Shown here: positions 4,040 through 60,270 of the stretch, piece after piece
Layout: the number at the start of each line of letters is the position of its first letter
How positions within the stretch are numbered: position 1 is the stretch's first letter
DNA from: Candidatus Kaiserbacteria bacterium
Lineage (GTDB): Bacteria; Patescibacteriota; Minisyncoccia; Phycocordibacterales; UBA2100
NCBI GenBank assembly: GCA_016217925.1
Contig: JACRFK010000003.1
Coordinates: 78,925 to 142,924, forward strand
Direction of reading: 5' to 3'
DNA: 64,000 nucleotides
The notes under the pieces: generated by a model
What the model saw: only the letters and a program-made list of their open reading frames with translations
Databases searched by the model: none
Told to the model about the DNA's origin: nothing
Translations under genes and position numbers: made by a program

Positions 4040-5349
4040 GGAAGGTACGCCATGGGGTTGAGGAATCCGGCCGGAGGCGTAATGGGAATGGTTGCTCGCG
4101 AACATGCGGACGTCCTCTTGGTCGCTTCGCCGAAGGTCAGGATTTTGGTCACGGCTGTCACGTACACGCTCAGGTGGAGGTGCGGCCCGGTGGCGTATCC
4201 TGTAGCTCCGACGTTGCCGATTATTTGTCCGGTCGCCACGCTCTGACCTTGCACCACAGAAATTTGTGAGAGGTGCCCGTAGAGCGTCGAGAGGCCGTTC
4301 AGGTGCTTTATCATGATCCACTTGCCGGCTGAGTAGCAGCCTTTATAGAGGTCGGTATTTCCTGTGGCCCACACGGTACCCGAGAGAGCCGCTTTGACCG
4401 GCGTGCCGATAGGAGCGCCCATGTCGATGCCATTATGGCCTTTGCCATTGTAAGCGCCGCTTTTTGCAAAGTCCGATTGCCCGAAGGTTTGTGTCAGTCG
4501 GATTTTGTCGAGCGGCCACTTAAGAATGCCCCTTCGCGCTGTGAGGATTTGAGAAGGATCAACATTCTGCAGGTACTGCTCCTTGAGGTCGTTGAGTGCG
4601 GCTTCGAACGCTGTTTTTCCGGCAATTTTCTGTGCCAATATCGCTTGGTATGCGGATTCTTGGGATTTTGTCTGTGCCAATAGATCGCTCTGCGCCTTTT
4701 TTTGCGCATTCAACGAGCCCTGTTGGGCAACGAGAGTGTTCTGCTGAGCGAGCAGCTCGGCGCGTTTCTCTTCCGTTTTTTTCTTTACTTCAGCGAGCGA
4801 TTGTTTTTCCTCTGCGAGTTTGGCAATCTGCTCGTTGATAGCCCCTTGGAGCGTTTGGTATGAATCCATTTCGCGCCAGGTGTCTGCAATATCATCGGAA
4901 GCGAGTACCTGAACGGCAAGCGACGTTTCGTCCGACTCATTCATTTGCCGGAACGACTCCGCGAGCCCGGCGGCGTCAATATCGATGGAGCTTTGCTTTA
5001 CCGCGATGCCTTGCGCAAGCTGTTTGATTTGCAATTGCGTCGAGCTGATCTTGCTTTTCGTCGAAGCAATGGACGCGGCGCTTTTTTTGAGCAGCAGGTT
5101 CAGTTCGTTGAGGTCGTTCTGAAGGCTTTTCTTTTTGGTGCCGACGGCATCGAGTTGTACTTGGTATTGAGCGATCTCCTTGTCGAGCTCGGCTATCTGG
5201 GTGTTGTGGGCGTCGATGAGGCCTTGTATTTCTGCGGATGTCGGAGCGGTGGTCGTGCTTTGTGCCCACGACGCAAGTGGAAAAAGAGCCAGGGCACATG
5301 CGATCACGCCGACCGATAGCGTGGCCGCTCCTCTTATTCCCGCATTCAT
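4036..5349 (-). CDS. Secreted coiled-coil M23 (LytM) family peptidase, EnvC-like
   Basis: Signal peptide, long Q/K-rich coiled coil, C-terminal M23 motifs HNGIDMGAP...GHLHLSVY. Confidence 0.85.
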   Translation of the reverse strand: MNAGIRGAATLSVGVIACALALFPLASWAQSTTTAPTSAEIQGLIDAHNTQIAELDKEIAQYQVQLDAVGTKKKSLQNDLNELNLLLKKSAASIASTKSKISSTQLQIKQLAQGIAVKQSSIDIDAAGLAESFRQMNESDETSLAVQVLASDDIADTWREMDSYQTLQGAINEQIAKLAEEKQSLAEVKKKTEEKRAELLAQQNTLVAQQGSLNAQKKAQSDLLAQTKSQESAYQAILAQKIAGKTAFEAALNDLKEQYLQNVDPSQILTARRGILKWPLDKIRLTQTFGQSDFAKSGAYNGKGHNGIDMGAPIGTPVKAALSGTVWATGNTDLYKGCYSAGKWIMIKHLNGLSTLYGHLSQISVVQGQSVATGQIIGNVGATGYATGPHLHLSVYVTAVTKILTFGEATKRTSACSRATIPITPPAGFLNPMAYLP

Positions 5350-26412: not shown

Positions 26413-27516
26413 TTACAATCCTTCTTGTCTCAACTTCTCGATGAGTTCGCGCGCATGCCTCGAAAGCTTTTTTGGGAATTCGATATCCACACGTACCAAT
26501 AAATCGCCGCGGGCGCGACCGTGCGGTACGCCTTTGCCGCGTACCCGAATGACTTCGCCGTGAGCGATGCCCGGCTCTACGGTAAACATTTCGTCGCCGT
26601 CGAGCGTCTGTACACGGTACTCACCTCCGAGAAGTGCGTCGGAAAGTTTAATCGGGAGCGAAGTGACGAGGTTATTCCCCTCGCGTGAGAATTTTGCGTC
26701 GGATTTCACGTGCAATTTCACGTACAGGTCGCCCGGCGTAGCGCCCGGAGCAGCCTCACCTCGTCCCGGCATACGTATCATCTCTCCGTCCTCCACGCCG
26801 GAAGGCACAACGATGTGTATCTCTTCCTCGCGTTTGCGCACGCTTTCGCCACGGCACGCCTCACAGACCGTTTCGGGTATCTGACCTTTTCCGTGGCAGC
26901 GCGAGCACGGACGCGCCGACGTAAACGTCCCGAAAAATGAATTGCGTGACTCGCGAATCTCGCCTTTGCCGTTGCAGTTGGAACACGTGATGAGCTTCGA
27001 GCCTTTTTTTGCGCCGGAGCCGGCACAGGTGTCACATTGGCTCGTCTTGGTGAGCAGCACGCGGCGCTCGGCCCCGAATATTGATTCGCGGAAGGCAAGC
27101 TCTATATCTATTGAAATGTCGCGTCCCCGCCTCGTACGGGCCTGTCCGCCGCCGAATACGTCGCCAAAAATATCGCCCAAATCGAACTCAAATTGCTGCC
27201 CTCCGAAGGAGGGTCCGCCTCCGGCGGAAAAATTGGAGAAATCGAAGCCGCCGAATCCGCCTTGTCCTCCGAAGGAGGATCCACCTCCGGCGGACGGCCC
27301 CCCGCCTCCGGCGAAGGTCTTGCCGTAGGTATCGTATTCAGCGCGCTTCTTTTTATCGGAGAGTACCGAGTACGCCTCGCTCACCTCTTTGAATTTTTTC
27401 TCGTCGCCGCCTTTTTTATCGGGATGCAATTTGTGCGCCAGCTTTCTGAAAGCGGATTTGATTTCTTCTTCCGTCGCCGTCTTCGCGACGCCTAAAATAT
27501 CATAATAGTTTTTCAT
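26413..27516 (-). CDS. dnaJ: Chaperone DnaJ
   Basis: J-domain with HPD (KLHPDKK), a G/F-rich region, and four CxxCxGxG zinc-finger repeats. Confidence 0.9.
27199..27228. repeat. Diverged copy of the 30-bp GGS-encoding double-hairpin element (in the dnaJ G/F region)
   Basis: ccctccgaaggagggtccgcctccggcgga encodes [10 protein letters not shown] on the minus strand. Confidence 0.4.
27265..27294. repeat. Diverged copy of the 30-bp element (in the dnaJ G/F region)
   Basis: tcctccgaaggaggatccacctccggcgga encodes [10 protein letters not shown]. Confidence 0.45.
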
Positions 27517-27644
27517 CCCGCTCCTTCTACACTAGTAAAACCATATTTGCAAAATGAATTTGAAAGGGCGGGATTCATATCGGAGAAGTATTGTACTAAG
27601 GATACGTTCCCAAAGCAAAAGCCCCGCCGAGGCGGGGCTGCTTG

Positions 27645-29543
27645 TCATTCCTTTTTCGGTTCCTCAGGCGGTTTCTGTTCGTCTTTCGGCGGTTCTTGTC
27701 CTCCGGAGGAGGATCCGCCTTCGGCGGACGGGGGGGTTTGCTGATTTTTGCTCATCGCTTCGCCTATCGCACTCATGGCGGTGGAAAGTGCTTCGGCAGC
27801 GGATTTGATTGCCGCTGCGTCAGTACCGGCTCGAGCCGCCTTGGCGGCTTCGATCTTTTCCTGGACGTTCTTCTTGATATCCTCGCTCACCTTATCTCCG
27901 TGCTCGCGGAGTGCTTTTTCGGCTGCGTAGACGATTTGGTCGGCTGCGTTTTGGGCCTCAACCACATCCTTTTTCTGTTTGTCCGCCTCGGCGTTCACCT
28001 CGGCATCTTTACGCATCTTTTCAATATCGGCCTCCGAGAGGCCGGAGCTACCTTCAATGCGAATGGACTGCTCCTTGTTCGTGGACTTGTCTTTGGCCTT
28101 TACGGTAAGTATGCCATTTGCATCAATGTCGAATGAGACCTCCACTTGGGGCATACCGCGCGGCGCCGGCGGGATACCGTCGAGGTTGAAGCGCCCAAGC
28201 GACTTATTGTCGCCCGCCATCGGGCGTTCGCCCTGCACGACGTGAATTTCAACGGACGGTTGATTGTCGCTCGCCGTGGAAAACGTCTGCGAGCGCGAGG
28301 TCGGAATGGTCGTATTGCGTTCGATGAGCTTGGTCGCCACACCACCCATCGTCTCGATGCCGAGCGAAAGCGGAATGACATCAAGGAGGAGCACGTCTTT
28401 GACATCACCCTGCAAAATGCCGCCTTGGATAGCTGCACCGATGGCCACGACTTCGTCGGGATTCACACTCAAGTTCGGTTTTTTGCCGAAGAATTCCTCT
28501 ACAGCCTTCTGCATAGCCGGCATGCGCGTCTGGCCCCCAACGAGAACGACTTCGTTGATATCTCCGACCTTGAAAGGCGATGCTTCGACGGCGCGCTTGG
28601 TGATGGTCATGGCACGGTCTAAAAATTCACGCGTAAGCTCTTCGAGCTTCCCCCTCGTCATCTTGATGAGCAAGTGCTGCGGGCCGGCGTCGGTCGAGGT
28701 GATGAACGGGATGTTTATCTCCGTCTCAAGTGCGGTGGAGAGCTCAATCTTTGCCTTTTCCGCAGCTTCGTCGAGCCGTTGGCGAGCGAGCGGGTCCTTA
28801 CTCACATCAATGCCAGATTCCTTTTTGAACTCATCGGAAATCCAAGTCATTATCTTTTGGTCGATATCCCGCCCGCCCAGGTGTGCGTCACCGTCTGTAG
28901 AGCGCACTTCGATAACGTCGTCACCGACTTCAAGTACCGAGATGTCGAACGTACCGCCGCCGAAATCGAAGACCGCTATTTTTTCGTTCTTCTTTTTGTT
29001 GAATCCGTATGCGAGAGCTGCCGCCGTCGGCTCGTTGATGATGCGCTTCACATCAAGGCCTGCGATTTTGCCTGCGTCCTTCGTCGCCTGACGTTGAGAG
29101 TCGTTGAAGTACGCGGGTACGGTGATGACGGCCTCCGTGATGGTCTCTCCCAGTCGCGCCTCGGCGTCTTGCTTTAGCTTCTGCAGTATCATCGCGGATA
29201 TCTCCTCGGGGCGGTACCATTTATCCGCCATTTTTACTTCAATACCGCCGTTTGCGGACTTTTGCGTTTCAAATGAGACGGCGGCGCGATCCTTTGCGAC
29301 CGCGGGTTCGTCGAACGTGTGGCCGATAAAGCGTTTTATCTGGTATACCGTGTTCTTTGGGTTCGTTACTCCCTGTCGTTTGGCAAGGAGGCCGACAAGT
29401 CGCTCTGACGTTTTACCGACAGCAACGACCGACGGAGTCGTGCGGGCGCCCTCTGCGTTCTCGATTATCTGCGGCTCACCGCCTTTCACCACAGCAATGG
29501 CGGAGTTGGTCGTGCCGAGGTCTATACCTAATATCTTGCTCAT
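27645..29543 (-). CDS. dnaK: Chaperone DnaK (Hsp70)
   Basis: [19 protein letters not shown]...DLGGGTFD... Start set at MSKIL. The C-terminal tail carries the [10 protein letters not shown] insert. Confidence 0.9.
27699..27728. repeat. 30-bp GGATCC-centred double-hairpin element, in-frame in the dnaK 3' end
   Basis: tcctccggaggaggatccgccttcggcgga. The same 30-mer occurs again at 31179. Confidence 0.8.
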
Positions 29544-29556
29544 ATAGTTGCTAGGT

Positions 29557-29585
29557 GTTATATGCTTTGCTAAGCACTTTGTCAA
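29557..29585 (-). promoter_or_regulatory. Candidate sigma70-type promoter for dnaK
   Basis: On the minus strand: TTGACA, a 17-nt spacer, then TATAAC. This sits about 14 nt upstream of the dnaK ATG, so the leader is very short and the call is speculative. Confidence 0.3.
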
Positions 29586-29592
29586 CCCGGCG

Positions 29593-29675
29593 TTAAATTT
29601 TCAATTTGCAATTTACAATTTTGCAAATTTATACATTGTAAATTGATTGGAAATTAAAAATTGAGAATTGAAAAT
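29593..29675. repeat. AT-rich repetitive spacer between grpE and dnaK (paralogous to 34058-34151)
   Basis: Built from repeated TGTAAATTG / AAAATTCAT units, which is striking in a 57 % GC genome. Confidence 0.6.
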
Positions 29676-30218
29676 TCATTTCTTAACAATAACGTGCGCT
29701 GCCCGCAATACCCTGCCGTCCATTTTGTACCCGTAGCGCAATATTCGTGCCACTGTTCCGGATTCGCCCGCCACGTCGTCACGCTCTTCTACAGTTTCGT
29801 GTACCGCATGGTCGACAATTTGGCCGACTTTCCCGAATCGCTCCACGCCATGGCGCGAAAGCGCATCAAGAAGCTGGCTACGTATCTGCTCGATGCCGCT
29901 GCGCCACCCCGCGTCCATGCTCTCCCACGTTGGTGAGCTTGCGGCGATATCAAAACCGTCGAGCGCGGGGATGATATCCGCGATCAGGTCTTCCTTGGCA
30001 CGGGTGCCCAATCGCTCGGCGTTTGCAAGCATTTCTTTGCGTGCGTTCACACTATCGGCCTTGCAACGCTGCCACCCGTCGAGGTACTCCTGGCGCTCTG
30101 CCTTCACCTCCGCGAGTTCGTCCTTAAGTTTTTTGAGCTTTGCCTGTGCGGCGCCGACGTCCCCGAGCTCTTCATCGGGCTCGAAATTCAGTTCTTCATC
30201 CGGAGGGACGTTCTTCAT
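29676..30218 (-). CDS. grpE: Nucleotide exchange factor GrpE
   Basis: Coiled-coil N-terminus. C-terminal GrpE signature HEAVHETVEE...VLRAAHVIV. Confidence 0.85.
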   Translation of the reverse strand: MKNVPPDEELNFEPDEELGDVGAAQAKLKKLKDELAEVKAERQEYLDGWQRCKADSVNARKEMLANAERLGTRAKEDLIADIIPALDGFDIAASSPTWESMDAGWRSGIEQIRSQLLDALSRHGVERFGKVGQIVDHAVHETVEERDDVAGESGTVARILRYGYKMDGRVLRAAHVIVKK

Positions 30219-30387
30219 GACGAAGCGAGTATAACAAAAACACCCCGCGATTGCGAGGTGTTTTTGCTTGAGGGGTTGAATCTATCGCTTGCGTCACGAC
30301 TCTCGTCGCGCCACCGCGACTCGGTCGCGACCCCGCCTCGCGGCCTCGCCTACTGGCTCGGCATCGCTCCGGCCGTCGTAGTGTCAA

Positions 30388-30411
30388 GAAAAAGCGAAGC
30401 AGTTCGCTTTT
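30388..30411 (-). terminator. Rho-independent terminator after rpsI
   Basis: On the minus strand: GAAAAAGCGAAcTGCTTCGCTTTT, a hairpin followed by a U-tract. Confidence 0.55.
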
Positions 30412-30412
30412 T

Positions 30413-30808
30413 CTAGCGCTTCGACCATTGCGGCGCTCTGCGCGCAGCTTTGAGACCGAACTTCTTGCGTTCTTTTGCACGGGGGTCGCGTTTGAGGAAG
30501 CCTCGGACCTTGAGGTCTTTACGCTGCTCGGGGGTGACTTCTATCATCGCGCGGGAAAGACCGAGGCGTACCGCTTCTGCCTGCGCCTTGAGGCCGCCGC
30601 CCTGTACGTGCGCAGAGACAGCGTACGTCGCCCCCATAAGCTTCAACGGCGAAAATGCCATCTGCACCATGACCTCGAGCGGGAAGTATTCATTCGCAAG
30701 TTTACCGTTCACGGTCATCGAAGAGCTCTTCGCTTCGGTGATGCGCACGCGGGCTGTTGCGGTCTTCCGACGGCCTACTGCTTCTGTGTATCGTAATTCT
30801 TTTGCCAT
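30413..30808 (-). CDS. rpsI: 30S ribosomal protein S9
   Basis: GRRKTATARV...GGGLKAQAEAVRLG...ERKKFGLKAARRAPQWSKR. Confidence 0.9.
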   Translation of the reverse strand: MAKELRYTEAVGRRKTATARVRITEAKSSSMTVNGKLANEYFPLEVMVQMAFSPLKLMGATYAVSAHVQGGGLKAQAEAVRLGLSRAMIEVTPEQRKDLKVRGFLKRDPRAKERKKFGLKAARRAPQWSKR

Positions 30809-30810
30809 AC

Positions 30811-31167
30811 TTATTCGGTAACCGCTAAATTTTTCAGACGGGGCGTATGCATCGTGTTGCGCGGGAGCATCCGTGCGACGGCCCGGCGGAGCGCTTCGGC
30901 GTTGCCTTTGCGTGCGGTGAGCGATGCGAGGCTTTCGCGCTTCAAGCCGCCCGGGTATCCGGAGTAGGTGGTATAGATAGTGCGCGAGCGTTTGCGTTCA
31001 CGGATATAGAGCTTGCTTGCATTGGTGACGGAGACTTTGACGTTCGAATTTTTGTTGGGCGTGTAATCGGGGCGCATCTTGCCCATGAGGGCTTTTGCGG
31101 CCTCGGAGGCGACGCGCCCGAGTGTGCGGCCGGCGGCGTCGATTGTGTATGTGTTTTTTGTCTCCAT
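30811..31167 (-). CDS. rplM: 50S ribosomal protein L13
   Basis: YTIDAAGRTLGRVASEAAKALMGK matches the L13 N-terminus. Operon partner of rpsI. Confidence 0.85.
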   Translation of the reverse strand: METKNTYTIDAAGRTLGRVASEAAKALMGKMRPDYTPNKNSNVKVSVTNASKLYIRERKRSRTIYTTYSGYPGGLKRESLASLTARKGNAEALRRAVARMLPRNTMHTPRLKNLAVTE

Positions 31168-31172
31168 ACTAA

Positions 31173-31559
31173 TTATTTTCCTCCGGAGGAGGATCCGCCT
31201 TCGGCGGAAACGAATTCAATGCGTGCGGCTTCACCCACGCGCTTCCCTACTCTGCCGAGGTTAACGATGCGTGTGTAGCCGCCTGCTCGTTTTGCGTAGC
31301 GCGGGGCGTATACATCGTGAAGCTTTTTCACCACATCATGAGCACCGCCCATGCGCGTTTCGATGACGCGGCGTGACGCGAGTGTGTTCTTCTTGCTCAT
31401 CGAGACCATCCTCTCGACGAACGGGCGGAGTTCTTTTGCCTTTGCGATAGTGGTCGTAATTCCCTCGTGTAGTACGAGCGAACGCGCGAGACTGCGCAGA
31501 AGTGCCGTCCGTTGCCCCCTCTTACGTCCCAATGTTCTGTTCTTCTTGTGATGCTGCAT
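31173..31559 (-). CDS. rplQ: 50S ribosomal protein L17 (with [12 protein letters not shown]-terminal extension)
   Basis: MQHHKKNRTLGRKRGQRTALLRSLARSLVLHEGITTT. The last 11 codons come from the 30-bp element. Confidence 0.85.
   Translation of the reverse strand: MQHHKKNRTLGRKRGQRTALLRSLARSLVLHEGITTTIAKAKELRPFVERMVSMSKKNTLASRRVIETRMGGAHDVVKKLHDVYAPRYAKRAGGYTRIVNLGRVGKRVGEAARIEFVSAEGGSSSGGK
31179..31208. repeat. 30-bp GGATCC-centred double-hairpin element, in-frame at the extreme 3' end of rplQ
   Basis: tcctccggaggaggatccgccttcggcgga, 30/30 identical to the dnaK copy. Confidence 0.8.
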
Positions 31560-31565
31560 ACCAGG

Positions 31566-32543
31566 TTACTTATCGTTGCGGAGAGTGAGACCCATGTTCG
31601 AGAGCGCGCGTTTAATGTCCTGAAGTCCTTTTTGGCCGAGCCCTTCTATAGCAAGAAGGTCATCTTCTCGCTTGCGTACCAATCCTCCGACGGTCCGGAT
31701 AGAAGCGTTATCGAGCGCCTGCTCCACACGCTGCGGCATGCTTAATTCCGTGATACGGGTCTTCAAAACTTCCGCGTCCATGGCTCCTCCCTTGTCTTCG
31801 CGGGAACCAGCGTGTGCTTCGGTCGCGCCAGAGAGTGCCTCCGGCGTCTCGTCCTCCTTGAATCCGACGACGGCCTTGAGCTGATGGATCATGGTCTCAA
31901 TAGAACTCTCAAGTGCTTCTCGCGGAGCAAGAGTGCCGTCGGTCTCGATAACGATACGGAGACGGTTGAAATCCGTGCGGTCTCCGACGCGCATGTTTTC
32001 CACTTCGTAATTGACACGGCGTATCGGCGAGAATATCGCGTCAAGCGCGATGGTCCCGATCTCCACGCGCTCCTTTTGGTGCATCTCCTTTGCGATGTAG
32101 CCAAGACCGCGTTCCGCGCGCAGCTCTAATTCAAGATTGACTTTGCCGCTTACATCGGCGATGTGCTGTTCCGGATTCAATATTTCGACTTGGCCGGGCA
32201 ATTTAAAATCTGCGGCGGTCACTTCTTTCGGCCCCTTCACTGAAAGCGTGATTGTCTGAGGTTCATCGGTCAGGAGCTTGAGGCGGACCTTGCGGATATT
32301 GAGCAAGAGCGTTACAACGTCCTCCTTGACGCCTTCGATGGTGGAGAATTCATGCGCGACCCCGGGAAGTTTGACGTGCGTGACAGCTGCGCCCGGAAGG
32401 GACGAGAGGATGATGCGGCGCAACGAATTTCCCAGAGTGTAGCCGTATCCCGGATAGAGTCCGTCTATTTCATAGGTACCGCCTCGCTCTGTTTCGGAGA
32501 CGACGCGCGGTTTGCTGGGCAGTGCAATGTGGTAATCCGACAT
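31566..32543 (-). CDS. rpoA: DNA-directed RNA polymerase alpha subunit
   Basis: GYGYTLGNSLRRIILSSLPGAAVT N-terminal domain. Has a C-terminal alpha-CTD. Confidence 0.9.
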   Translation of the reverse strand: MSDYHIALPSKPRVVSETERGGTYEIDGLYPGYGYTLGNSLRRIILSSLPGAAVTHVKLPGVAHEFSTIEGVKEDVVTLLLNIRKVRLKLLTDEPQTITLSVKGPKEVTAADFKLPGQVEILNPEQHIADVSGKVNLELELRAERGLGYIAKEMHQKERVEIGTIALDAIFSPIRRVNYEVENMRVGDRTDFNRLRIVIETDGTLAPREALESSIETMIHQLKAVVGFKEDETPEALSGATEAHAGSREDKGGAMDAEVLKTRITELSMPQRVEQALDNASIRTVGGLVRKREDDLLAIEGLGQKGLQDIKRALSNMGLTLRNDK

Positions 32544-32593
32544 AAAAAAATGATAACGTCAAGCTGCTAGTAAAAATCGCCAACAATTATAAC

Positions 32594-33211
32594 CTATCTG
32601 CTGTAGAACTCAAAGACCGTAGGATAATCGAGTCCGGTCTCAACGGTGTTGTACGTCGGCTCTCCGACGACCTCTGCTTTGAGCAAGCTAAGGTCAACGG
32701 TGAGCCATGCGGGAACGGAACGGGTGTTCTCTGCTTTGTTCTCGAGAAGGCCGGCAAACAACGGGCTTCGGCGGCTACCCTCCCGGACGCTGACTACATC
32801 ACCCTTGCGGACGCGGTACGAAGGGACCGTCGTTCGCTTGCTGTTGATCAGGATGTGGCCGTGAGAGAGAGCTTGACGTGCAGCACGGCGTGTGGGCAAA
32901 AGGCCTGCGCGATACGCGACGCTATCTGCGCGCATTTCGAGCGCGCGATGCAAACTCGCCGACGGATCAGGTTGCGTGTACGCCACTTTTGCATAATTGG
33001 AAAGCTGTTTCTCCGAGATGCCATAGGTAAAGCGGACGCGCTGCTTCTCCAAAAGCTGTCTCCCGTAATCACTGCCGCCCCGGCCTCCGCGGGTTTTCTT
33101 ATTTGCAGCCGAGCGTGCCTCCGAGAGTGCGAATTTTTGTGACTGCGTCTTTTCAAAGATGGCGGCGCCAAGTCTTTTTGCGATCTTAAATTTTGATTTT
33201 ATCAGCAACAT
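32594..33211 (-). CDS. rpsD: 30S ribosomal protein S4
   Basis: S4 N-terminal region plus S4 RNA-binding domain (RLD..VYR.G). Confidence 0.9.
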   Translation of the reverse strand: MLLIKSKFKIAKRLGAAIFEKTQSQKFALSEARSAANKKTRGGRGGSDYGRQLLEKQRVRFTYGISEKQLSNYAKVAYTQPDPSASLHRALEMRADSVAYRAGLLPTRRAARQALSHGHILINSKRTTVPSYRVRKGDVVSVREGSRRSPLFAGLLENKAENTRSVPAWLTVDLSLLKAEVVGEPTYNTVETGLDYPTVFEFYSR

Positions 33212-33216
33212 ATATA

Positions 33217-33651
33217 TTAGACCCTTCGAGGCTTTGGCGGTCGGGGGCCATTATGCGGTATCGGGGTGTCGTCGGCAATTCGAGTGACGTCAATACCTTT
33301 ACTGACAAATCCGCGCATTGCGGATTCGCGACCGGCGCCGACACCACGGATGACGACATCCACTTCTTTGACGCCGATGATGGCCGCTTTGTCCCCAACA
33401 AGTTCGCCGACTTTTGCGGCAGCAAATGGAGTGCCTTTCTTGGCGCCTGAAAAGCCGAGAGCGCCTGAGGACGACCACGCGACCGCGTTGCCGCTCTTGT
33501 CTGTCAGAAGGACTTTGGTGTTGTTGTACGTCGCATGGATATGCAGTGTGCCCGCGAGAATGTTCTTCTTTGCGATGCGCGCGAGAGAGCGGGACTTGAG
33601 TCCTTGGTCCACGCTACCTCCGCTCTTTCTTATGATGCGCTTTTTTCCCAT
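33217..33651 (-). CDS. rpsK: 30S ribosomal protein S11
   Basis: LHIHATYNNTKVLLTD..GN....SSGALGFSGAKKGTPFAA. Confidence 0.9.
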   Translation of the reverse strand: MGKKRIIRKSGGSVDQGLKSRSLARIAKKNILAGTLHIHATYNNTKVLLTDKSGNAVAWSSSGALGFSGAKKGTPFAAAKVGELVGDKAAIIGVKEVDVVIRGVGAGRESAMRGFVSKGIDVTRIADDTPIPHNGPRPPKPRRV

Positions 33652-33676
33652 ACTGGTACAAAAATAAATTTTTTGA

Positions 33677-34057
33677 TTATGTCTTCTCCAACTTGCGGCG
33701 GCCGGATGTCATCGTCTTTCTGACGTTGCCACGGACCGTGCGGGAATTGGTTTTTGAACGCTGACCACGACCCGGCAAATGTTTGGCGTGGCGGCTCCCT
33801 CGATAAGATTTAATGTCTTTGAGCCGGCGGATATTGCCGCTCACGTCGCGGCGCAATTCCCCTTCTACGGTAAACTTCTCGACTGCTTCGCGAAGCGAGG
33901 TCTCTTCTTTTGCCGAAACATCTTTCGGTTTCTTACCGGCGTCTATGCCGAGTGCTTTAAGTGTGGCAAGCGCTCGTGGTCGGCCGATGCCATAAATGGC
34001 GGTCAGGCCTATTTCGAGGCGCTTTTCTTCGGGTATGGTGATTCCAGCGATACGCAT
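33677..34057 (-). CDS. rpsM: 30S ribosomal protein S13
   Basis: MRIAGITIPEEKRLEIGLTAIYGIGRPRA. Confidence 0.9.
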   Translation of the reverse strand: MRIAGITIPEEKRLEIGLTAIYGIGRPRALATLKALGIDAGKKPKDVSAKEETSLREAVEKFTVEGELRRDVSGNIRRLKDIKSYRGSRHAKHLPGRGQRSKTNSRTVRGNVRKTMTSGRRKLEKT

Positions 34058-34151
34058 ATGAATAATTTTTAATTTACAATTTTCAATTTACAAAATTGGG
34101 ACATTGAAAATTCATTGCAAAATTGAAAATTGATAACTGAAAATTTGAGTT
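34058..34151. repeat. AT-rich repetitive spacer between rpmJ and rpsM (paralogous to 29593-29675)
   Basis: Shares AATTTACAATTTT and ATTGAAAATTCATT with the grpE-dnaK spacer. Confidence 0.6.
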
Positions 34152-34265
34152 CTAGCCTTGTCGTTGTTTATGTCTTGGATTTTTACAAATAACCCACAAT
34201 CGCCCGCGACGCTTCACTGCGTGGCAATGTGTACAGATCTTTTTGACTGAGGATTTTACTTTCAT
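34152..34265 (-). CDS. rpmJ: 50S ribosomal protein L36 (not in the ORF track)
   Basis: Manual translation gives [37 protein letters not shown], a zinc-ribbon L36. Confidence 0.8.
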
Positions 34266-34338
34266 GTTCCTAAATTTGCAAAACGTAACCAGAATCCCGT
34301 CTCCGAACTTCGGAGTGCGCGACTCTACGGACTTCTCG

Positions 34339-34545
34339 TTAGCTTCGTCTCACGATACGTGCCCTGCCTCCGTACGGATCCAGTTGCACTTCTACTTTAT
34401 CGCCGACGAGCACCTTAATTCTATGCAGCCGCATCTTTCCGGCGAGATACGCGAGTACGCGAGTCCCCCCTTCGAGCTTCACCTGAAAAAGGGTGTTGGG
34501 AAGCGCCTCATCGACGACTCCACTCACAACCTTTAGTTCGGTCAT
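34339..34545 (-). CDS. infA: Translation initiation factor IF-1
   Basis: [58 protein letters not shown], an S1-like OB fold. Confidence 0.8.
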
Positions 34546-34682
34546 ATCTGCGCTCGGTAGAATAGCAGCTCTGTGCGGGTTAGTCAACCCCGTTAGAGGC
34601 CAACTTCGCTGATTCTTGTAATTTTCATTTTTGCAGGTGACATTGATCCGCGTAGCCTCTAACGGGGTCAAATCCCTGCAGG

Positions 34683-36155
34683 CTATTTGACCACTTCAGG
34701 CACGACCACGTCGATCTTGATGTCGGAAGCTGTAGCCGGAAAGCTGTTTTTCCAGAACGGGGCGATACGCGCACGTGCCTCCTGGACGCCTGAGAATCCG
34801 TTTACAATACCCTGAAATGCCGAGTTGTCCTTGCCCTCCAAAGCCTTCGCAAGTGCCTCAGCGTCGACCTTCCAGATAACAAGGGCGGAGCCGGATACAG
34901 CAAGGTTGAGAATGCTTGGTTGGCCATCAATGCTGGACGAGGCAAACTGAACGGAAAAGTCGTCCGATGGCTTCAGGGTGACTAATTCAGCATCGTCGAA
35001 ATCGGTAAATGCCGATCGAGCGACAGATCGTGCGAAGGCGTCTGAAGAAAATGTCGGCACCGTCACACGTGCCTTTTGGTGGATCCTCACCGAGCTACCA
35101 GCCTCCGTCGTATTGGGCAGCGATTCGTACGTGATTCGGATGAGCTCTGGAAATACGGAAACGCCATCTTTGGCCTGGCCAATCGCGGCCTCGTGGGCCT
35201 TTGTCTCGAGCCTTGTGCGCACGGCGGAGATGGCGCTGTCGAGCTCTCCTGGTGTTGTGCCGGGCTGTTCACCCGCGAAGCCCCCCGAGAATGCGTCGGT
35301 CGACTTCGCGTATACACCCGCGTACATAGGCGCGGTCGATTTGAGTCCGGGAAGGGTGAACTTCGCGACAGGACCAATATTGTACTTCTCACCGGGCTGG
35401 TCTGCGGCGACTGTGACATTGACCTGTCCAGGTGCCGAACCGACTTTTCCCGGAACCACGACATCGGACAGTGCACGGTAGATGAGACCCTCGGGAGATT
35501 CGAATCGTGTCGTTTTAACCAAGCGAACAGGAGATGCAGAATATGAGTTATAAACAGTGATGCTACCGGAGGCTTTCGTTTCAACGTGGGTCGTGCCTTG
35601 TGCGGCGACGACCCCGGAGTCCTCGAGGTCGAAGGTCTGCACGGTATACGCGAGCGTACCGGGTGTCGCCTCTGACGCATCGGCTACTTGGTACGCCGTG
35701 AGCGTGGTGGAAGAAAGCGTAGCCATACGCGATTTGGGTGTAACTGTGATGGTGGTTGAGGAAAACACAAAAAGAAGCGACGCGGCAGCGATGAGAACAA
35801 CGAGTGACGCAGCCGCCCAAATCCACAGACGAGTAGCGCGGCGCGGCGGGCGTAGCGGACCTCCGCCTGAAGCGTCACGAATGTCGGTATCCATACGATT
35901 CGGTGCCCCCGTGACTCGAAATGGGCGTGAACGCGCCGGAGGAGATATGCTCCGTATGCCGCGCGAGGCCGGATCGGCCGTCCCATCAGTACCCATAGAT
36001 GCATCAGCTACGCGTATCGGTATGTCGCGTGCGTCGGTCGGCCGGTCAAGTGGCTCTTCCTCCACGGGCGCCTGGGGTGGGCGGGGAGTGAACTGACGCG
36101 GTGGAGTCGGAGCACCGGATGGTGGCGTAATATCTTGAAAGTAATCTTTTGCCAT
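34683..36155 (-). CDS. Hypothetical single-pass membrane protein with Pro-rich N-terminus and large extracytoplasmic domain
   Basis: 490-aa ORF with one TM helix at about residue 110 and no known motif. Confidence 0.45.
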   Translation of the reverse strand: MAKDYFQDITPPSGAPTPPRQFTPRPPQAPVEEEPLDRPTDARDIPIRVADASMGTDGTADPASRGIRSISPPARSRPFRVTGAPNRMDTDIRDASGGGPLRPPRRATRLWIWAAASLVVLIAAASLLFVFSSTTITVTPKSRMATLSSTTLTAYQVADASEATPGTLAYTVQTFDLEDSGVVAAQGTTHVETKASGSITVYNSYSASPVRLVKTTRFESPEGLIYRALSDVVVPGKVGSAPGQVNVTVAADQPGEKYNIGPVAKFTLPGLKSTAPMYAGVYAKSTDAFSGGFAGEQPGTTPGELDSAISAVRTRLETKAHEAAIGQAKDGVSVFPELIRITYESLPNTTEAGSSVRIHQKARVTVPTFSSDAFARSVARSAFTDFDDAELVTLKPSDDFSVQFASSSIDGQPSILNLAVSGSALVIWKVDAEALAKALEGKDNSAFQGIVNGFSGVQEARARIAPFWKNSFPATASDIKIDVVVPEVVK

Positions 36156-36204
36156 GTAATTTTCTCGAAATTATGTCGCGACTTCTATATTCTACCTCAC
36201 AAAA

Positions 36205-37362
36205 TCATGCCCGCCTTTCTTCGATGTTAACAAGTGCGGCGGCGAGGTGAATGCCTGTGTCAATGCGTACTGCAGTTTCGGGAAGCGCCCAATGCGCGAG
36301 ATCAAGCGACTTTAGAGACGAGACAACGAATGGTTGTGTTGTTGTGGTGAATTGCGCGAAATCGATACGAGAAAAAAGTCCGCTAAGCCACGGAATGAGG
36401 TCTTGGTGCGTCGTAAGTATGAGATGGTTTGGTAAGCGTTGGCGTTGGACTAATTTCGCAATAGCTTCGCCAAATGCACGAACAAGCTCTGGCTCGGCCT
36501 TTGCCGCAGCGGCATTAACCGCCTCACACGCGGGGTCGTGGCATTCTCCACCCGCAATAAGGCGCAACAAGGTCAGAGTGTCGTCCGGCATATTATTTCC
36601 ACTGATCCGTTTAAGGATCGAATTCTTTCCTTCAGACGTTGACGCGTATTCCGTCACGAGTCCGTTCCGGATCACCATAAAACTTGTTCCCTCGCTAGCC
36701 ATATCCACAACTACAAATTCGTCGGGCGACGCCGGAGTAACCCGCATGACAGAGAGCGTCGCGTGAACTCCCGAACGCCATGTGACCGGCTGGGAGCCAA
36801 AAAGTTGTTGCAGCGCGCTATTCACCGATGCACGTAATCCTGGGTCGCAACCGCTGACAAGCGCAGAGACGTTAAGCTCGTTGCCGGATTTCCCCTCCGG
36901 CCGACTTGTCGGATATCCGTTGACCTCGACGCGCACAACTCCGGCTTCTAGGATATTCTCTCGGGCAAATTCAGTATCTTCTGCAAGGGCCTGTTGCGCA
37001 AGTTTGCCTATCACCTTGCCTGAAATGGACGTCGCCTTGGGGAAAGTCGTCCGCGCCGTGACCGTTTTTGAGCGTGTCCACGGTGCGCGGATGATGGCGT
37101 AGACGGAATGCGGCATCTTCCCTCCCGCTTCTCTGTGGTTTTCGAGCGCGTGCTGTCCCGCCCCTATCAAATGCGCGCCGATGGCGGCAATAATTGCCGC
37201 AGGAGAGCGCTCCTCAATGGGTAGGGAACGACGCTCTGCAGCGAGTATGCGTACCGGCCCGTCTTTTGGTACGGCAAGTATGGCGACGGCGGCGCTTCCG
37301 CTCCCGATATCCGCGACGGCGACAATCTTTTCGCGCGAACGCCCGAGATGTATTCCGAACAT
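36205..37362 (-). CDS. ASKHA (actin-like ATPase) fold protein, possibly Ppx/GppA-family
   Basis: VAVADIGSGSAAVAIL phosphate-1 motif and DMASEGTSFMV phosphate-2-like motif. A weak call. Confidence 0.35.
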   Translation of the reverse strand: MFGIHLGRSREKIVAVADIGSGSAAVAILAVPKDGPVRILAAERRSLPIEERSPAAIIAAIGAHLIGAGQHALENHREAGGKMPHSVYAIIRAPWTRSKTVTARTTFPKATSISGKVIGKLAQQALAEDTEFARENILEAGVVRVEVNGYPTSRPEGKSGNELNVSALVSGCDPGLRASVNSALQQLFGSQPVTWRSGVHATLSVMRVTPASPDEFVVVDMASEGTSFMVIRNGLVTEYASTSEGKNSILKRISGNNMPDDTLTLLRLIAGGECHDPACEAVNAAAAKAEPELVRAFGEAIAKLVQRQRLPNHLILTTHQDLIPWLSGLFSRIDFAQFTTTTQPFVVSSLKSLDLAHWALPETAVRIDTGIHLAAALVNIEERRA

Positions 37363-37482
37363 TGAGTAAGTATACCAATCAAAGGGTCAGAAGGTCTGCG
37401 AATTTTGGTGAAGTGTTGAAAAAACAATCACGCCCGCCGGTTTAACCGAGCGGGCGTGGGAGTCTCAGCGGCACGGCATCGC

Positions 37483-37995
37483 TTATTTTTTGTAGTAATC
37501 CGCGTCGTCCATTATGGCTTGCGGCATGACCACCATTTGATGACCGCCCCAATTATGGGGATTATCAATGGTCATAATCATCGCAGGCTCTACCTTGATG
37601 TCGAGTTCAGCAAGTAGCGCCTTCTTCTCGTTATATCGTCCGAAGTCTGGGACGAACAGAGACGTACCAACGGCTACTGCACTGAGCACGCACAAGCTCA
37701 CGACAATCGGCATTTTCGCCGGTTCGGTAAGTAATCCTTGCGCTATGAAAGCCGATGATATAAGCATGGCAGTAGTTACGATTACTACCCATGCCATACC
37801 GTGCTTCCACCAAGGCTTCAGCTCGATTGCTTGCCATCTGCAGTACGCCCGGTCAGGTATTCGTATTACTTTACAAAAGCAACGCCAATCCTCGGGCTCT
37901 CCTCGCCAGAAGACGTATTCCTCACTTCCGAATCGATGAATCCTCCAGGGCAACCTACGTGTCCCCGCTGGAGTCTTTTTCTTCTGTTCGGCCAT
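37483..37995 (-). CDS. Hypothetical membrane protein
   Basis: 170-aa ORF with a Cys/Trp-rich N-terminus and 2-3 TM helices. Confidence 0.35.
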   Translation of the reverse strand: MAEQKKKTPAGTRRLPWRIHRFGSEEYVFWRGEPEDWRCFCKVIRIPDRAYCRWQAIELKPWWKHGMAWVVIVTTAMLISSAFIAQGLLTEPAKMPIVVSLCVLSAVAVGTSLFVPDFGRYNEKKALLAELDIKVEPAMIMTIDNPHNWGGHQMVVMPQAIMDDADYYKK

Positions 37996-38051
37996 GGCCG
38001 ACCCCCATTGGAGCGTGATTGCCCACTGTCGAGCACTATGCGTCAGTAAAA

Positions 38052-40028
38052 TTACACGGTCAACACCGCCTTGATGCGGCGGATGCCTGCCGCGACCGCT
38101 TCCTCTTTCTGAATTTTGAATGTGCCGCCCTCTCCTATCTCACGTGTGTTCCCGACGTGTGGGCCGCCGCAGAATTCTATCGAGAACGCTTTGTCGAATT
38201 GCGGGTCGGTGGCCGTCGCCCCTTTTGGTCCGAGCGAGTACACCGAGACCATGTCGGGATACTTTGCACCGAATTCGTGCTCGGCGCCGAGTTTCTCTGC
38301 CTCCTCTTTGGGCAAGGTCGAGCGTATCATCGGCAGTCCTTCTTGTATTTTTTCGTTGACGATGCGTTCCACCTCCTGTAGCTGTTCGGGTGTCATTTTG
38401 GCGCCGTACGAGAAGTCTATACGTAGACGCTCTTGTGTGATGTTGCTACCGCGCTGTTTTATCGAAGGGCCAAGCACTATTTGCAAGGCCTTGAGGAGCA
38501 GGTGGTGCGCCGTGTGCAGGCGCGTGGTCTTTTCGGACTGGTCGGCGAGTCCCCCTTTAAACTTTTGCTCACTCCCCGCGCGGGAGAGTTCGCGGTGTTT
38601 CTTCATCGCCGCAGCGAACCCGTCCTCATCCACGTCAATACCGCGCTCGTGCGCCAATTCGAGCGTCATCTCAAAGGGAAAACCGTAGGTCGTGAAGAGG
38701 AGAAAGGCATCGTTACTCGCGATGTGGCCGGCCTTTGCCACCTTCTCGAATTCCTTCATGCCGCTTTCGAGGGTGTGTGCGAATTGTTTTTCCTCTTTCC
38801 ATATCTCGCTCGTGATAGTTTCGTACGCCTCTTCGGAGCCGAGCTCGGGGTATGCCTGCTTGTACTTCTCGATGAAAGACACCGCACAGCGCACGAGCAT
38901 GCTGTCCGCGGCCTCACCATTCTGTATTTCGAGTTTCTGCGCGTGTTGCGCGGCACGGCGGATGAGGCGGCGCAATACATATCCGCGGTCGGTGTTGGCC
39001 GGCCGCACACCATCGGCGAGCATGAATGTCGCGGCGCGCATGTGGTCCGCGACGATGCGGTATGAGCGCTGGTACCGCTTGTCCTCGTACTCCTTGCCTG
39101 AGAAATGAATGAGGAGTCCGATGACGTCGGCGAAGACATCAATAGCGAAGACGTCGGGGTTGTCCTGCGCGGCTGCGGCGATGCGTTCGAGCCCGCCGCC
39201 GAAGTCGACATTAGCCTTTGGTAAAAGCTTAAATACTTTCTTTCCGCCGGAGGCGGATCCTCCTTCGGAGGAGATGTACTGCATAAAGACGGAATTACCA
39301 ATCTCGAGGAACCGTCCGCAATCGCAATTGGGGTGGCACTCGGCGCCGAATTGCGGGTCGTGAGGCGTGCCGAAGTCATAAAACACCTCTGAGTCCGGCC
39401 CGCCCGGCTCCCCTGCAGGCATGTTTTCGGGGACTCCCGCGCGGCTCCACCAATTTTTCTTGGCATCGTAGTAGAAGATGCGTCCGCCTTGCATGCCGAG
39501 GCGGTAGCCGTCGGCTTCCGGACCTATTTCAACTATCTTTGCGTCGATTCCTTTGCTCTCAAACAGTGTTTTCCAAATTTCGGCAGACTCAGTATCCTTA
39601 GGGACACCGTTTTTTTCATCGCCGATAAATGCGGTCACATACAAATTCTTCGGGTCGAGACCTATCTCGCTCGTCAAGAATTCAAAGAACCACGGCAGCT
39701 GCTCACGCTTAAAATAATCGCCGAGCGACCAATTGCCGAGCATCTCGAAAAATGTCGTGTGGCGGTTGTCGCCCACTTCTTCGATATCTTCAGCGCGGAA
39801 ACTTTTCTGGCTATTTACCAAACGATTGCCTTTTGGATGCGGCTCGCCGAGAAGATACGGCACGAGCGGCTGCATGCCGCTACCGGTGAAAAGTGTCGTC
39901 GGGTCGTTCTGGGGTACGAGCGGCGCGGAAGGAATTATGGTGTGCCCTCTTGTCTTTCCGCCGGAGGCGGATCCTCCTCTGGAGGAGAAAAATTCCAGAT
40001 ACTTCGTGCGTATCTCGTTGATAGTCAT
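38052..40028 (-). CDS. alaS: Alanyl-tRNA synthetase (short form, catalytic plus editing domains) carrying two 10-aa element insertions
   Basis: N-terminal EIRTKYLEFF....GH..IPSAPLVPQNDPTLLFTGSGM. Editing-site HTAHHLL and CGGPHV motifs. 658 aa. Confidence 0.9.
   Translation of the reverse strand: MTINEIRTKYLEFFSSRGGSASGGKTRGHTIIPSAPLVPQNDPTTLFTGSGMQPLVPYLLGEPHPKGNRLVNSQKSFRAEDIEEVGDNRHTTFFEMLGNWSLGDYFKREQLPWFFEFLTSEIGLDPKNLYVTAFIGDEKNGVPKDTESAEIWKTLFESKGIDAKIVEIGPEADGYRLGMQGGRIFYYDAKKNWWSRAGVPENMPAGEPGGPDSEVFYDFGTPHDPQFGAECHPNCDCGRFLEIGNSVFMQYISSEGGSASGGKKVFKLLPKANVDFGGGLERIAAAAQDNPDVFAIDVFADVIGLLIHFSGKEYEDKRYQRSYRIVADHMRAATFMLADGVRPANTDRGYVLRRLIRRAAQHAQKLEIQNGEAADSMLVRCAVSFIEKYKQAYPELGSEEAYETITSEIWKEEKQFAHTLESGMKEFEKVAKAGHIASNDAFLLFTTYGFPFEMTLELAHERGIDVDEDGFAAAMKKHRELSRAGSEQKFKGGLADQSEKTTRLHTAHHLLLKALQIVLGPSIKQRGSNITQERLRIDFSYGAKMTPEQLQEVERIVNEKIQEGLPMIRSTLPKEEAEKLGAEHEFGAKYPDMVSVYSLGPKGATATDPQFDKAFSIEFCGGPHVGNTREIGEGGTFKIQKEEAVAAGIRRIKAVLTV
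39243..39272. repeat. 30-bp double-hairpin element, in-frame in alaS (encodes [10 protein letters not shown])
   Basis: tccgccggaggcggatcctccttcggagga. This is the opposite orientation to the dnaK and rplQ copies. Confidence 0.8.
39957..39986. repeat. 30-bp double-hairpin element, in-frame in the alaS N-terminus (encodes SSRGGSASGG)
   Basis: tccgccggaggcggatcctcctctggagga. It interrupts the otherwise conserved AlaRS N-terminal block FF..GH. Confidence 0.8.
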
Positions 40029-60215: not shown

Positions 60216-60270
60216 ACAGCGGCCCCCCGCAAATTGCGGGGGGCCGCTGTGCAAAAGCGAACAGTGAAAA

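Follow-up and report, generated by a model that had tools for sequence, protein, structure and literature searches.

A 30-bp double-hairpin DNA element in genes of Candidatus Kaiserbacteria, probably a new family of palindromic insertions

Rickettsia palindromic elements (RPEs) are palindromic repeats that lie in-frame in unrelated, often essential genes of a reduced-genome bacterium, where they encode a conserved peptide at positions compatible with the host fold; they have intragenic as well as intergenic copies (PMC10969869). An element that resembles them in these respects occurs in a 64,000-nucleotide stretch of the genome of a Candidatus Kaiserbacteria bacterium (contig JACRFK010000003.1, positions 78,925 to 142,924; the window in what follows): six copies of a 30-bp sequence, with the consensus TCCTCC-GAA-GGAGGA-TCCGCC-TCC-GGCGGA in the window, lie in dnaJ (two), dnaK, rplQ, and alaS (two). 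It is probable that this sequence represents a new, non-autonomous family of palindromic insertion DNA and that it acts like the RPEs. The initial annotation had already compared it to them as an in-frame, orientation-neutral element; the comparison is supported, with the Gly/Ser reading frame as a strong bias and not a rule. The two differ in that RPEs are about 100-150 bp long, fall into about ten families and are found only in Rickettsia, whereas the present element measures 30 bp, is unrelated in sequence and occurs in Paceibacteria and some other phyla; it also gives the same type of peptide both ways, has six open frames, and leaves exact empty sites without target duplication. By size, Patescibacteria hosts, consensus, and Rfam it falls outside the RPE families, while in-frame insertion at tolerated sites is common to both.

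The closest system in function is that of the RPEs, and in structure that of the repetitive extragenic palindromes (REPs) and the single and double hairpin elements of mitochondria. REPs and REPINs are, like the element, GC-rich imperfect palindromes of 20-40 bp that form hairpins in single-stranded DNA and, together with IS200/IS605 elements, lack terminal inverted repeats and target duplications (REP review: PMC3733652). However, REPs are extragenic, reach hundreds of copies in a genome and have a GTAG or CGTC tag on one side, whereas the element is mostly intragenic (at least 113 of 256 classified copies lie confidently inside open reading frames, ORFs, and many others 1-4 codons before a stop), occurs in tens per genome, and has no such tag but a symmetric TTT-AAA flank (the hyphen marks the insertion point). 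Mitochondrial hairpin elements (fungal double-hairpin elements, sponge RHEs, yeast GC clusters) are likewise short mobile hairpins with conserved stems and variable loops, found occasionally inside rRNA or protein genes and kept in the transcripts, and their mechanism is likewise unexplained (PMC2800124); they belong to organelles, differ in length, and lie for the most part between genes or in rRNA, in contrast to a bacterial dimer of fixed 30 bp that is mainly coding and in one reading frame. MITEs (miniature transposable elements with inverted repeats), too, are small, non-autonomous, and dispersed, and sometimes form in-frame fusions (PMC10969869), but they measure 50-500 bp, have terminal inverted repeats matching those of a parent insertion sequence, and produce target-site duplications; here, no duplication is seen at any filled/empty pair and no longer parent among the flank comparisons.

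The unit and the upkeep of its stems

The unit consists of two adjoining hairpins, each with a 6-bp stem and a 3-nt loop (TCCKCC-NNN-GGMGGA, twice), joined at a central GGATCC. The initial annotation had described a palindrome plus a hairpin; the palindromic nature stands, but the unit is better seen as two like hairpins, both of which carry TCCGCC/GGCGGA in the dominant form of the family (109 of 125 copies in the less biased metagenome sample, among the matches listed), the mixed TCCTCC/TCCGCC form of the window being a minority in that sample. Among the matches listed there are 250 dimers and 42 isolated hairpins, most of the latter with a decayed second hairpin alongside, and no trimers; these counts rule out a monomer or a trimer as the unit, which is the dimer. 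Ten codons in length and free of stops in all six frames, the 30-mer never breaks a reading frame by intragenic insertion, and since TCC (Ser) and GGA (Gly) are reverse complements, both orientations yield the same peptide type, in frame 0 S-[SA]-x-G-G-S-[SA]-x-G-G.

In the window, a search at up to 3 mismatches recovers five of the six copies (all but dnaJ copy A; Table 1), with no match to the 30-mer in 100 dinucleotide-preserving shuffles, and a Hamming scan of the 64 kb adds the more decayed dnaJ copy A and no others; the six positions originally assigned to the element are thus borne out. The copies in dnaK and rplQ are identical, those in alaS are the same unit on the opposite strand with 2 mismatches each, and dnaJ copies B and A differ by 3 and 4 mismatches from the dnaK/rplQ sequence and by 1 and 2 from the family consensus, respectively. 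The genes that carry them, four in all, are encoded on the minus strand. The antisense ORFs attributed earlier to out-of-frame translation of the element are present, including one with PPEADPP.

One view of its conservation comes from alanyl-tRNA synthetase (AlaRS), for which 120 Kaiserbacteria orthologs were aligned and placed on a neighbour-joining tree, and for which carrier DNA was fetched by protein identity, independently of any DNA pattern. The N-terminal insert is present in 6 of the 120 and the site-2 insert in 2 (P0001 and P0004 only), the carriers being scattered among empty relatives. All carriers read TCC TCC A[AG]A GGA GGA TCC GCC TCC GGC GGA; the fourfold-degenerate stem sites are identical in 8 of 8 cases, against 34-44% identity gene-wide, and the adjoining codons vary freely. 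Had these been ordinary Gly/Ser-rich linkers, shaped by protein-level selection and a preference for TCC and GGA codons without any mobile element, self-complementarity would come for free, given that (Ser)n(Gly)n runs so encoded pair with themselves, and the naturally Gly-rich G/F region of DnaJ would be an obvious place for them. Such an origin is nevertheless highly improbable: besides the invariance of the fourfold sites, the identical 30-mer recurs across unrelated genes and genomes, and indels of exactly 30 bp fall even inside a universally conserved AlaRS motif. Where the initial annotation had named equivalent Gly/Ser residues encoded by unrelated nucleotides in all related genomes as an outcome against the element, the reverse is seen, carrier orthologs using the same nucleotides.

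A relaxed scan, which tolerates up to 5 stem mismatches, returns 38 decayed copies, many of them with paired changes (C1/G15, TCGGCC/GGCCGA, TCTGTC/GACAGA, TCCACC/GGTGGA, TGCGCC/GGCGCA). In the window itself, the changes T1>C and A15>G of dnaJ copy A form a compensatory pair in hairpin 1; this pair turns Ser into Pro and is thus non-synonymous, which again speaks against a protein-level linker. Over 127 distinct copies, the double-hairpin model accounts for 98.2% paired cells, 10 of its 12 pairs are changed on both sides, and none of 500 shuffles reaches any of these measures. The T-A/G-C signal at the middle pair may partly reflect subfamily descent, the other pairs representing independent events. 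Single stem changes compatible with G-U pairing also occur, and the stems are conserved while the loops vary freely; at orthologous filled sites in genomes 70-77% identical, too, the stems are kept and the loops differ, an observation of less weight since these sites were found by an intact-stem pattern. Hairpin stems therefore persist at the nucleotide level with compensatory changes, maintained either by selection on a DNA or RNA hairpin or by hairpin-templated self-correction. Two other folds were rejected on the same 127 copies: a single long hairpin reaches 85.2% paired cells, no better than shuffles and with no covariation support, and complementarity between the loops, on which a perfect palindrome over all 30 bp would depend, is found in only 19.

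The window form has a predicted folding energy of -17.4 kcal/mol as RNA and -10.7 kcal/mol as DNA, and so strong an RNA fold, together with the conserved stems, free loops, and G-U-compatible changes, could point to a role in RNA that is kept by the host: ribosome pausing between domains, protection of mRNA ends, or the masking or presenting of a Shine-Dalgarno-like GGAGGA. Many copies are indeed followed by a stop within 1-4 codons or placed directly ahead of a start (rplM, smc, argD, rplN). We consider such a role very unlikely as the explanation of the family, however, because, of close orthologs of one essential gene, some have a copy and others do not, which means that no tested copy is required, because the two orientations relative to genes are about equally frequent (50 vs 42), and because an Rfam scan of the window returned only a tRNA and no family matching the element. 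Nor does the element ever mimic an intrinsic terminator, since it has A's after and T's before its hairpins on both strands.

Insertion sites, reading frames, and distribution

Comparison of related genomes, as suggested in the initial annotation, reveals presence or absence of the element at exact positions. Filled and empty alleles that differ by exactly 30 bp, without target duplication, are available for the alaS N-terminus (30 bp missing in L027 and L235, with empty alleles TTC-GAG or TTT-AAG), alaS site 2 (gap in L020), the pair L076/L047 (CTT-AAG), and ComM. The claim that the alaS insert splits the conserved N-terminal block of the enzyme thus holds, with exactly 30 bp relative to orthologs. 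In the syntenic relative L108, which is about 80-85% identical to the window at the nucleotide level, the dnaK-tail copy and dnaJ copy B are absent, leaving clean gaps (27 columns as aligned), whereas the rplQ copy is shared with 30 of 30 positions identical, against about 83% identity in the surrounding alignment, and dnaJ copy A is present as an identical copy at the orthologous site. The dnaK-tail site is filled at the matching position in L004 and, judging from shared flanks, probably also in L003.

The ComM-like pair is closely related: the proteins, from different samples, are 98% identical and differ by exactly ten residues, and the DNA of the filled (L183) and empty (L236) alleles is 97.4% identical, with 15 of the 42 mismatches crowded into the first 45 nt on the 3' side of the element. 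Such a cluster points to recombinational import from a diverged donor or to mutagenic repair; in this one case, a filled allele appears to have moved between related lineages by homologous recombination. The carriers of the alaS site-2 insert share an adjoining 3-residue difference.

A nested insertion is seen in the metagenome-assembled genome (MAG) CAZYWN01, which contains at least 6 copies of a ~200-bp AT-rich foldback repeat with arms of aaatcctaaat-type units: the 30-mer sits at the exact centre of four copies and is missing from two others, and filled and empty copies thus coexist in one genome. When shared flanks were used to look for a longer parent, only orthologous genes and this foldback repeat came up. 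The target itself is recognizable from the flanks: of 250 distinct copies among the matches listed, 207 have T at position -2 and 198 have A at +32 (consensus TTT-AAA). Since empty alleles have them as well, these flanks are part of the target, not of the element; they were also considered as an outer stem and rejected as such, there being no covariation between positions -1 to -7 and +31 to +37. A preference for the apex of larger flanking hairpins was likewise rejected (2.0% vs 2.2% in controls, at 5 bp or more, in a symmetric-register test). The alaS N-terminal site, TTTTTC-AAG, fits the target consensus, and several lineages far from one another have it filled, with subtypes and loops that differ, so that it is either a hot spot or the home of a very old insert.

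Within genes, the element is read almost always in one frame. Among the matches listed, confident intragenic copies divide 107:4:2 between the Ser/Ala/Gly, Pro-rich, and Arg-rich frames; these were called by a codon log-likelihood classifier with ORF inspection, since a longest-ORF rule mislabels several copies of an element that is open in all frames. The assertion that it always encodes a Gly/Ser decapeptide therefore holds for the window but not for the family, about 5% of the confident intragenic copies being Pro- or Arg-rich. While the 95% share of the Gly/Ser frame could be seen as the mark of a protein linker, the Pro-rich frame is used in real proteins, LigA (PPEEDPPPAE) and MnmA, as is the Arg-rich frame in RNase HII, and other copies are intergenic, in 5' leaders, or just upstream of start codons; the element is a DNA-level entity and not a peptide motif. 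Target-like motifs in long ORFs fall on codon boundaries (frame 0) in only 40-57% of cases, less than the 95% observed, and target preference alone is therefore insufficient; the simplest account of the frame counts would be that selection filters insertions in the other frames.

The positions of the copies in their proteins are in keeping with tolerated insertion. In alaS, the N-terminal insert appears as a ten-residue gap in the alignment to the solved AlaRS structure (PDB chain 9jc7), and in an AlphaFold2 model of the enzyme (mean predicted local distance difference test, pLDDT, 78.8) it forms a coil with pLDDT below 50 between helix H3-14 and strand E29-31, the site-2 insert being placed in a loop between strands E240-254 and E265-278. 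Both alaS inserts are thus predicted to lie in loops, a point that the initial annotation had put forward for checking; the copies of dnaK and rplQ are in C-terminal tails.

The wider pattern search that had been suggested adds copies by the hundred, in genes and genomes unrelated to one another. With the pattern TCCTCCNNAGGAGGATCCNCCTNCGGCGGA, a scan over one genome for each species gave at least 109 stretches, which among the matches listed all come from MAGs of Patescibacteria type (Kaiser-, Lipton-, Jorgensen-, and Nomurabacteria, Paceibacterota, and others, from many projects). A looser pattern, TCCKCCNNNGGMGGATCCKCCNNNGGMGGA, in which the loops and the middle stem pair are left free, gave at least 120 stretches in metagenomes. 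Groundwater sets such as those of Hainich and Rifle are among the sources of the contigs. The element is thus scattered over the genomes of Paceibacteria (Parcubacteria, within the candidate phyla radiation, CPR), and its TCCGCC/GGCGGA form is also found in at least some non-CPR bacteria of the same habitats: one host protein has an LptC/OstA-like domain, which marks at least some carriers as diderm and non-CPR. The 250 perfect-stem copies among the matches listed sit in unrelated host genes, including several aminoacyl-tRNA synthetases, GyrA, UvrD, LigA, MnmA, RNase HII, ComM, TpiA, SSB, PGI, D-Ala-D-Ala ligase, glycosyltransferases, and large secreted proteins. Literature searches, which included the literal sequences and whose coverage leaves out most subscription journals, found no published description, and the element appears undescribed.

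This distribution also bears on the synthetic origin that the initial annotation had kept as an alternative, namely a cloning linker of GGS type with a BamHI site, or an assembly error. GGATCC is indeed a BamHI site, and literature matches to GGCGGATCCGCC come from unrelated cloning-type studies, most likely as primer sequences. But the element is present on over 200 contigs of MAG and metagenome projects independent of one another, its loops and stems vary naturally, in-frame copies occur in essential genes, and orthologous sites are kept between genomes only 70-85% identical; the chance of an artefact is practically negligible; GGATCC is not even enriched in the window (14 sites vs 18.6 expected).

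A functional DNA site, bound by a dimeric protein or serving these bacteria, which are naturally competent, as a self-recognition tag for DNA uptake, and spread by recombination and molecular drive without transposition, would account for the dyad symmetry with its two unspecified positions per half-site and conserved A9 and T22, for the same sequence being kept across many lineages, for the filled allele, at least one, that recombination moved together with a diverged flanking patch, and for the near-absence from viral contigs. Of the 2.9 million viral contigs scanned with the looser pattern, only 2 match, and carriage by phages was rejected on this count. An explanation of this kind is improbable all the same. 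The covariation within each half (1-15, 3-13, 4-12, etc.) favours intrastrand hairpins over duplex read-out, and the copies are 30-bp insertions at hundreds of sites and not point mutations of existing sequence. The copy density, about one per 40-100 kb (a rough estimate from extra copies in the fetched loci, not a computed value), is far below that of uptake sequences, and known DNA uptake sequences (DUS/USS) occur roughly once per kb and originate from point mutations under an uptake bias. Recombination, finally, is unable to make a copy at a new locus, and de novo insertion must occur, because the same 30-mer is found at hundreds of unrelated sites.

One of the two viral matches, on an IMG/VR contig (L111, nt 390-419), supplies the last codons before the stop of a putative group II intron reverse transcriptase; a mobile group II intron could, on the strength of this arrangement, carry the element between genomes.

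Mechanism, neighbouring features, and meaning

For a family of insertion DNA, the observations are best joined as follows. New copies arise as exact 30-bp insertions without target-site duplication, with a preference for T-rich before A-rich triplets (TTT-AAA); selection would then purge most insertions in other frames and in structured parts of proteins, leaving survivors in loops, linkers, protein termini, and intergenic DNA. Mobilisation may, at low confidence, depend on a trans-acting enzyme that recognises the folded hairpins or a cruciform. It is conceivable, though on balance doubtful, that its chemistry would be nearer to that of single-strand HUH/Y1 enzymes (IS200/IS605, REP/RAYT-type) than to DDE transposition, an analogy suggested by three features: targets are not duplicated, the ends are hairpins, and copies are absent in a patchy, seamless-looking way; IS200/IS605 elements excise seamlessly. 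As in IS200/IS605, hairpins are found at both ends (by covariation) and target-site duplication is absent (by exact 30-bp indels). Those elements go in 3' of a defined tetra- or pentanucleotide of one strand and are strand-biased with respect to replication; here, the T-rich triplet before the element is matched by an equally strong A-rich one after it, and the nearly symmetric element does not allow a strand to be assigned.

Several points weigh against this account of mobile insertion DNA. The 20 proteins scanned in the window, housekeeping or unannotated, include no transposase or other mobilising enzyme; 30 bp is, to our knowledge, smaller than any element shown to transpose, and too small for the guide sequences used by IS200/IS605 ends; the target signal is symmetric (TTT-AAA) and not the one-sided tetranucleotide expected of Y1 enzymes; and a density of tens of copies per genome looks low. 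Most copies, moreover, were found with intact-stem patterns, so that their conservation is partly by construction (the alaS carriers and the relaxed scan are exempt), and the patchy distribution in alaS may reflect one old insertion and recombination in place of repeated transposition and excision. A still wider reading would see here the smallest self-propagating DNA unit, a 30-nt dumbbell pasted footprint-free into T-A steps by a structure-specific enzyme, invisible to translation and crossing phyla among ultra-small groundwater bacteria, with sister palindromes as a general route to protein loops in the CPR; taken as a whole, this is a speculative combination to which we would give rather poor chances.

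Two further kinds of short insert recur in these genomes. The first, CCTGCCTGCCGGCAGGCAGG, is a 20-bp perfect palindrome that encodes LPAGRQ on both strands and appears in some Kaiserbacteria AlaRS as the 7-residue insert RLPAGRQ; the window has no match to it at up to 3 mismatches. The second, with DNA like CCTTCGACAAGCTCAGGG, is translated as PSTGSGQA, PSTSSG, GSPQAV, or STGSG and is found at several AlaRS positions in the alignment of 120 orthologs, in which this family alone has at least 10 sites of small inserts.

Around the host genes, the following was observed. The rplQ copy ends, in gene sense, in GGAGGA, followed by AAA, TAA, 5 nt, and the ATG of rplM (start at 31167); this Shine-Dalgarno-like GGAGGA is thus 11 nt upstream of the rplM ATG and can pair with the TCCTCC of its own hairpin, and like arrangements are found upstream of smc (L074), argD (L030), and rplN (L042). 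The AlaRS of the window, identical to P0001 with its PF01411 and PF07973 domains, and those of all 120 relatives are only about 637-669 residues long, with Pfam matches to the catalytic and tRNA_SAD (second additional) domains only; they are accordingly without the C-terminal C-Ala domain of E. coli-type enzymes, and some sources label such short forms 'alanine--tRNA ligase-related protein'. Between grpE and dnaK, a 46-bp AT-rich imperfect palindrome (29601-29646; TCAATTTGCAATTTACAATTTTGCAAATTTATACATTGTAAATTGA) may be a heat-shock operator; it does not fit what we take to be the CIRCE consensus. At 60216-60250, directly after the stop of a minus-strand Gly/Arg-rich ORF, a hairpin whose arms, of 17 bp each, pair perfectly (ACAGCGGCCCCCCGCAA T TTGCGGGGGGCCGCTGT) looks like a terminator unrelated to the 30-mer.

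Table 1. Copies of the 30-bp element and their host genes in the window, and sites of related or nested repeats in other sequences.
Feature	Position	Strand	Context
dnaJ copy A, decayed (CCCTCCGAAGGAGGGTCCGCCTCCGGCGGA)	27199..27228	+	G/F region
dnaJ copy B	27265..27294	+	G/F region
dnaK copy	27699..27728	+	C-terminal tail
rplQ copy	31179..31208	+	last codons of gene, before stop
alaS site-2 copy	39243..39272	-	variable loop after FMQYI
alaS N-terminal copy	39957..39986	-	splits conserved AlaRS motif: FF[SSRGGSASGG]KTRGH
Host gene dnaJ	26413..27516	-	ORF and translation; syntenic with L108
Host gene dnaK	27645..29585	-	ORF as listed; internal ATG may be true start
Host gene rplQ (ribosomal protein L17)	31173..31559	-	ORF
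Host gene alaS (658 aa, Candidatus Kaiserbacteria)	38052..40028	-	ORF; 100% identical to P0001
Foldback repeat copies (CAZYWN01)	L008 ~4600-4850, L039 ~690-940, L080 ~1-260, L085 ~2030-2280, L038 4216-4465, L057 3270-3430		
CCTGCCTGCCGGCAGGCAGG sites	L020 nt ~2693, L233 nt ~1047 (alaS); L052, L067, L086, L134, L145 (two), L175, L214, L221		
CCTTCGACAAGCTCAGGG-like DNA examples	L019 ~1196, L031 ~7389, L095 ~7159, L138 ~1976, L180 ~5566, L232 ~1170		

The main interest of the family lies in what inserts a 30-bp double hairpin footprint-free and what keeps its stems intact. Since every copy shows up between related genomes as exactly 30 bp present or absent, mobilisation is directly testable, and a mobilising enzyme, if found, could bring to light a new chemistry by which very short DNA is inserted footprint-free. 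The element is also a compact natural case of DNA that is neutral to translation in both orientations, and would serve at little cost to mark recent insertions and recombination events in uncultured populations. Proteins of the CPR (Patescibacteria) are known for odd insertions, which annotation pipelines treat as ordinary sequence; antisense 'PPEEDPP' ORFs or Gly/Ser loops of this origin should not be taken as functional features. The 30-bp family and its sister palindromes would explain part of the length variation of CPR proteins.

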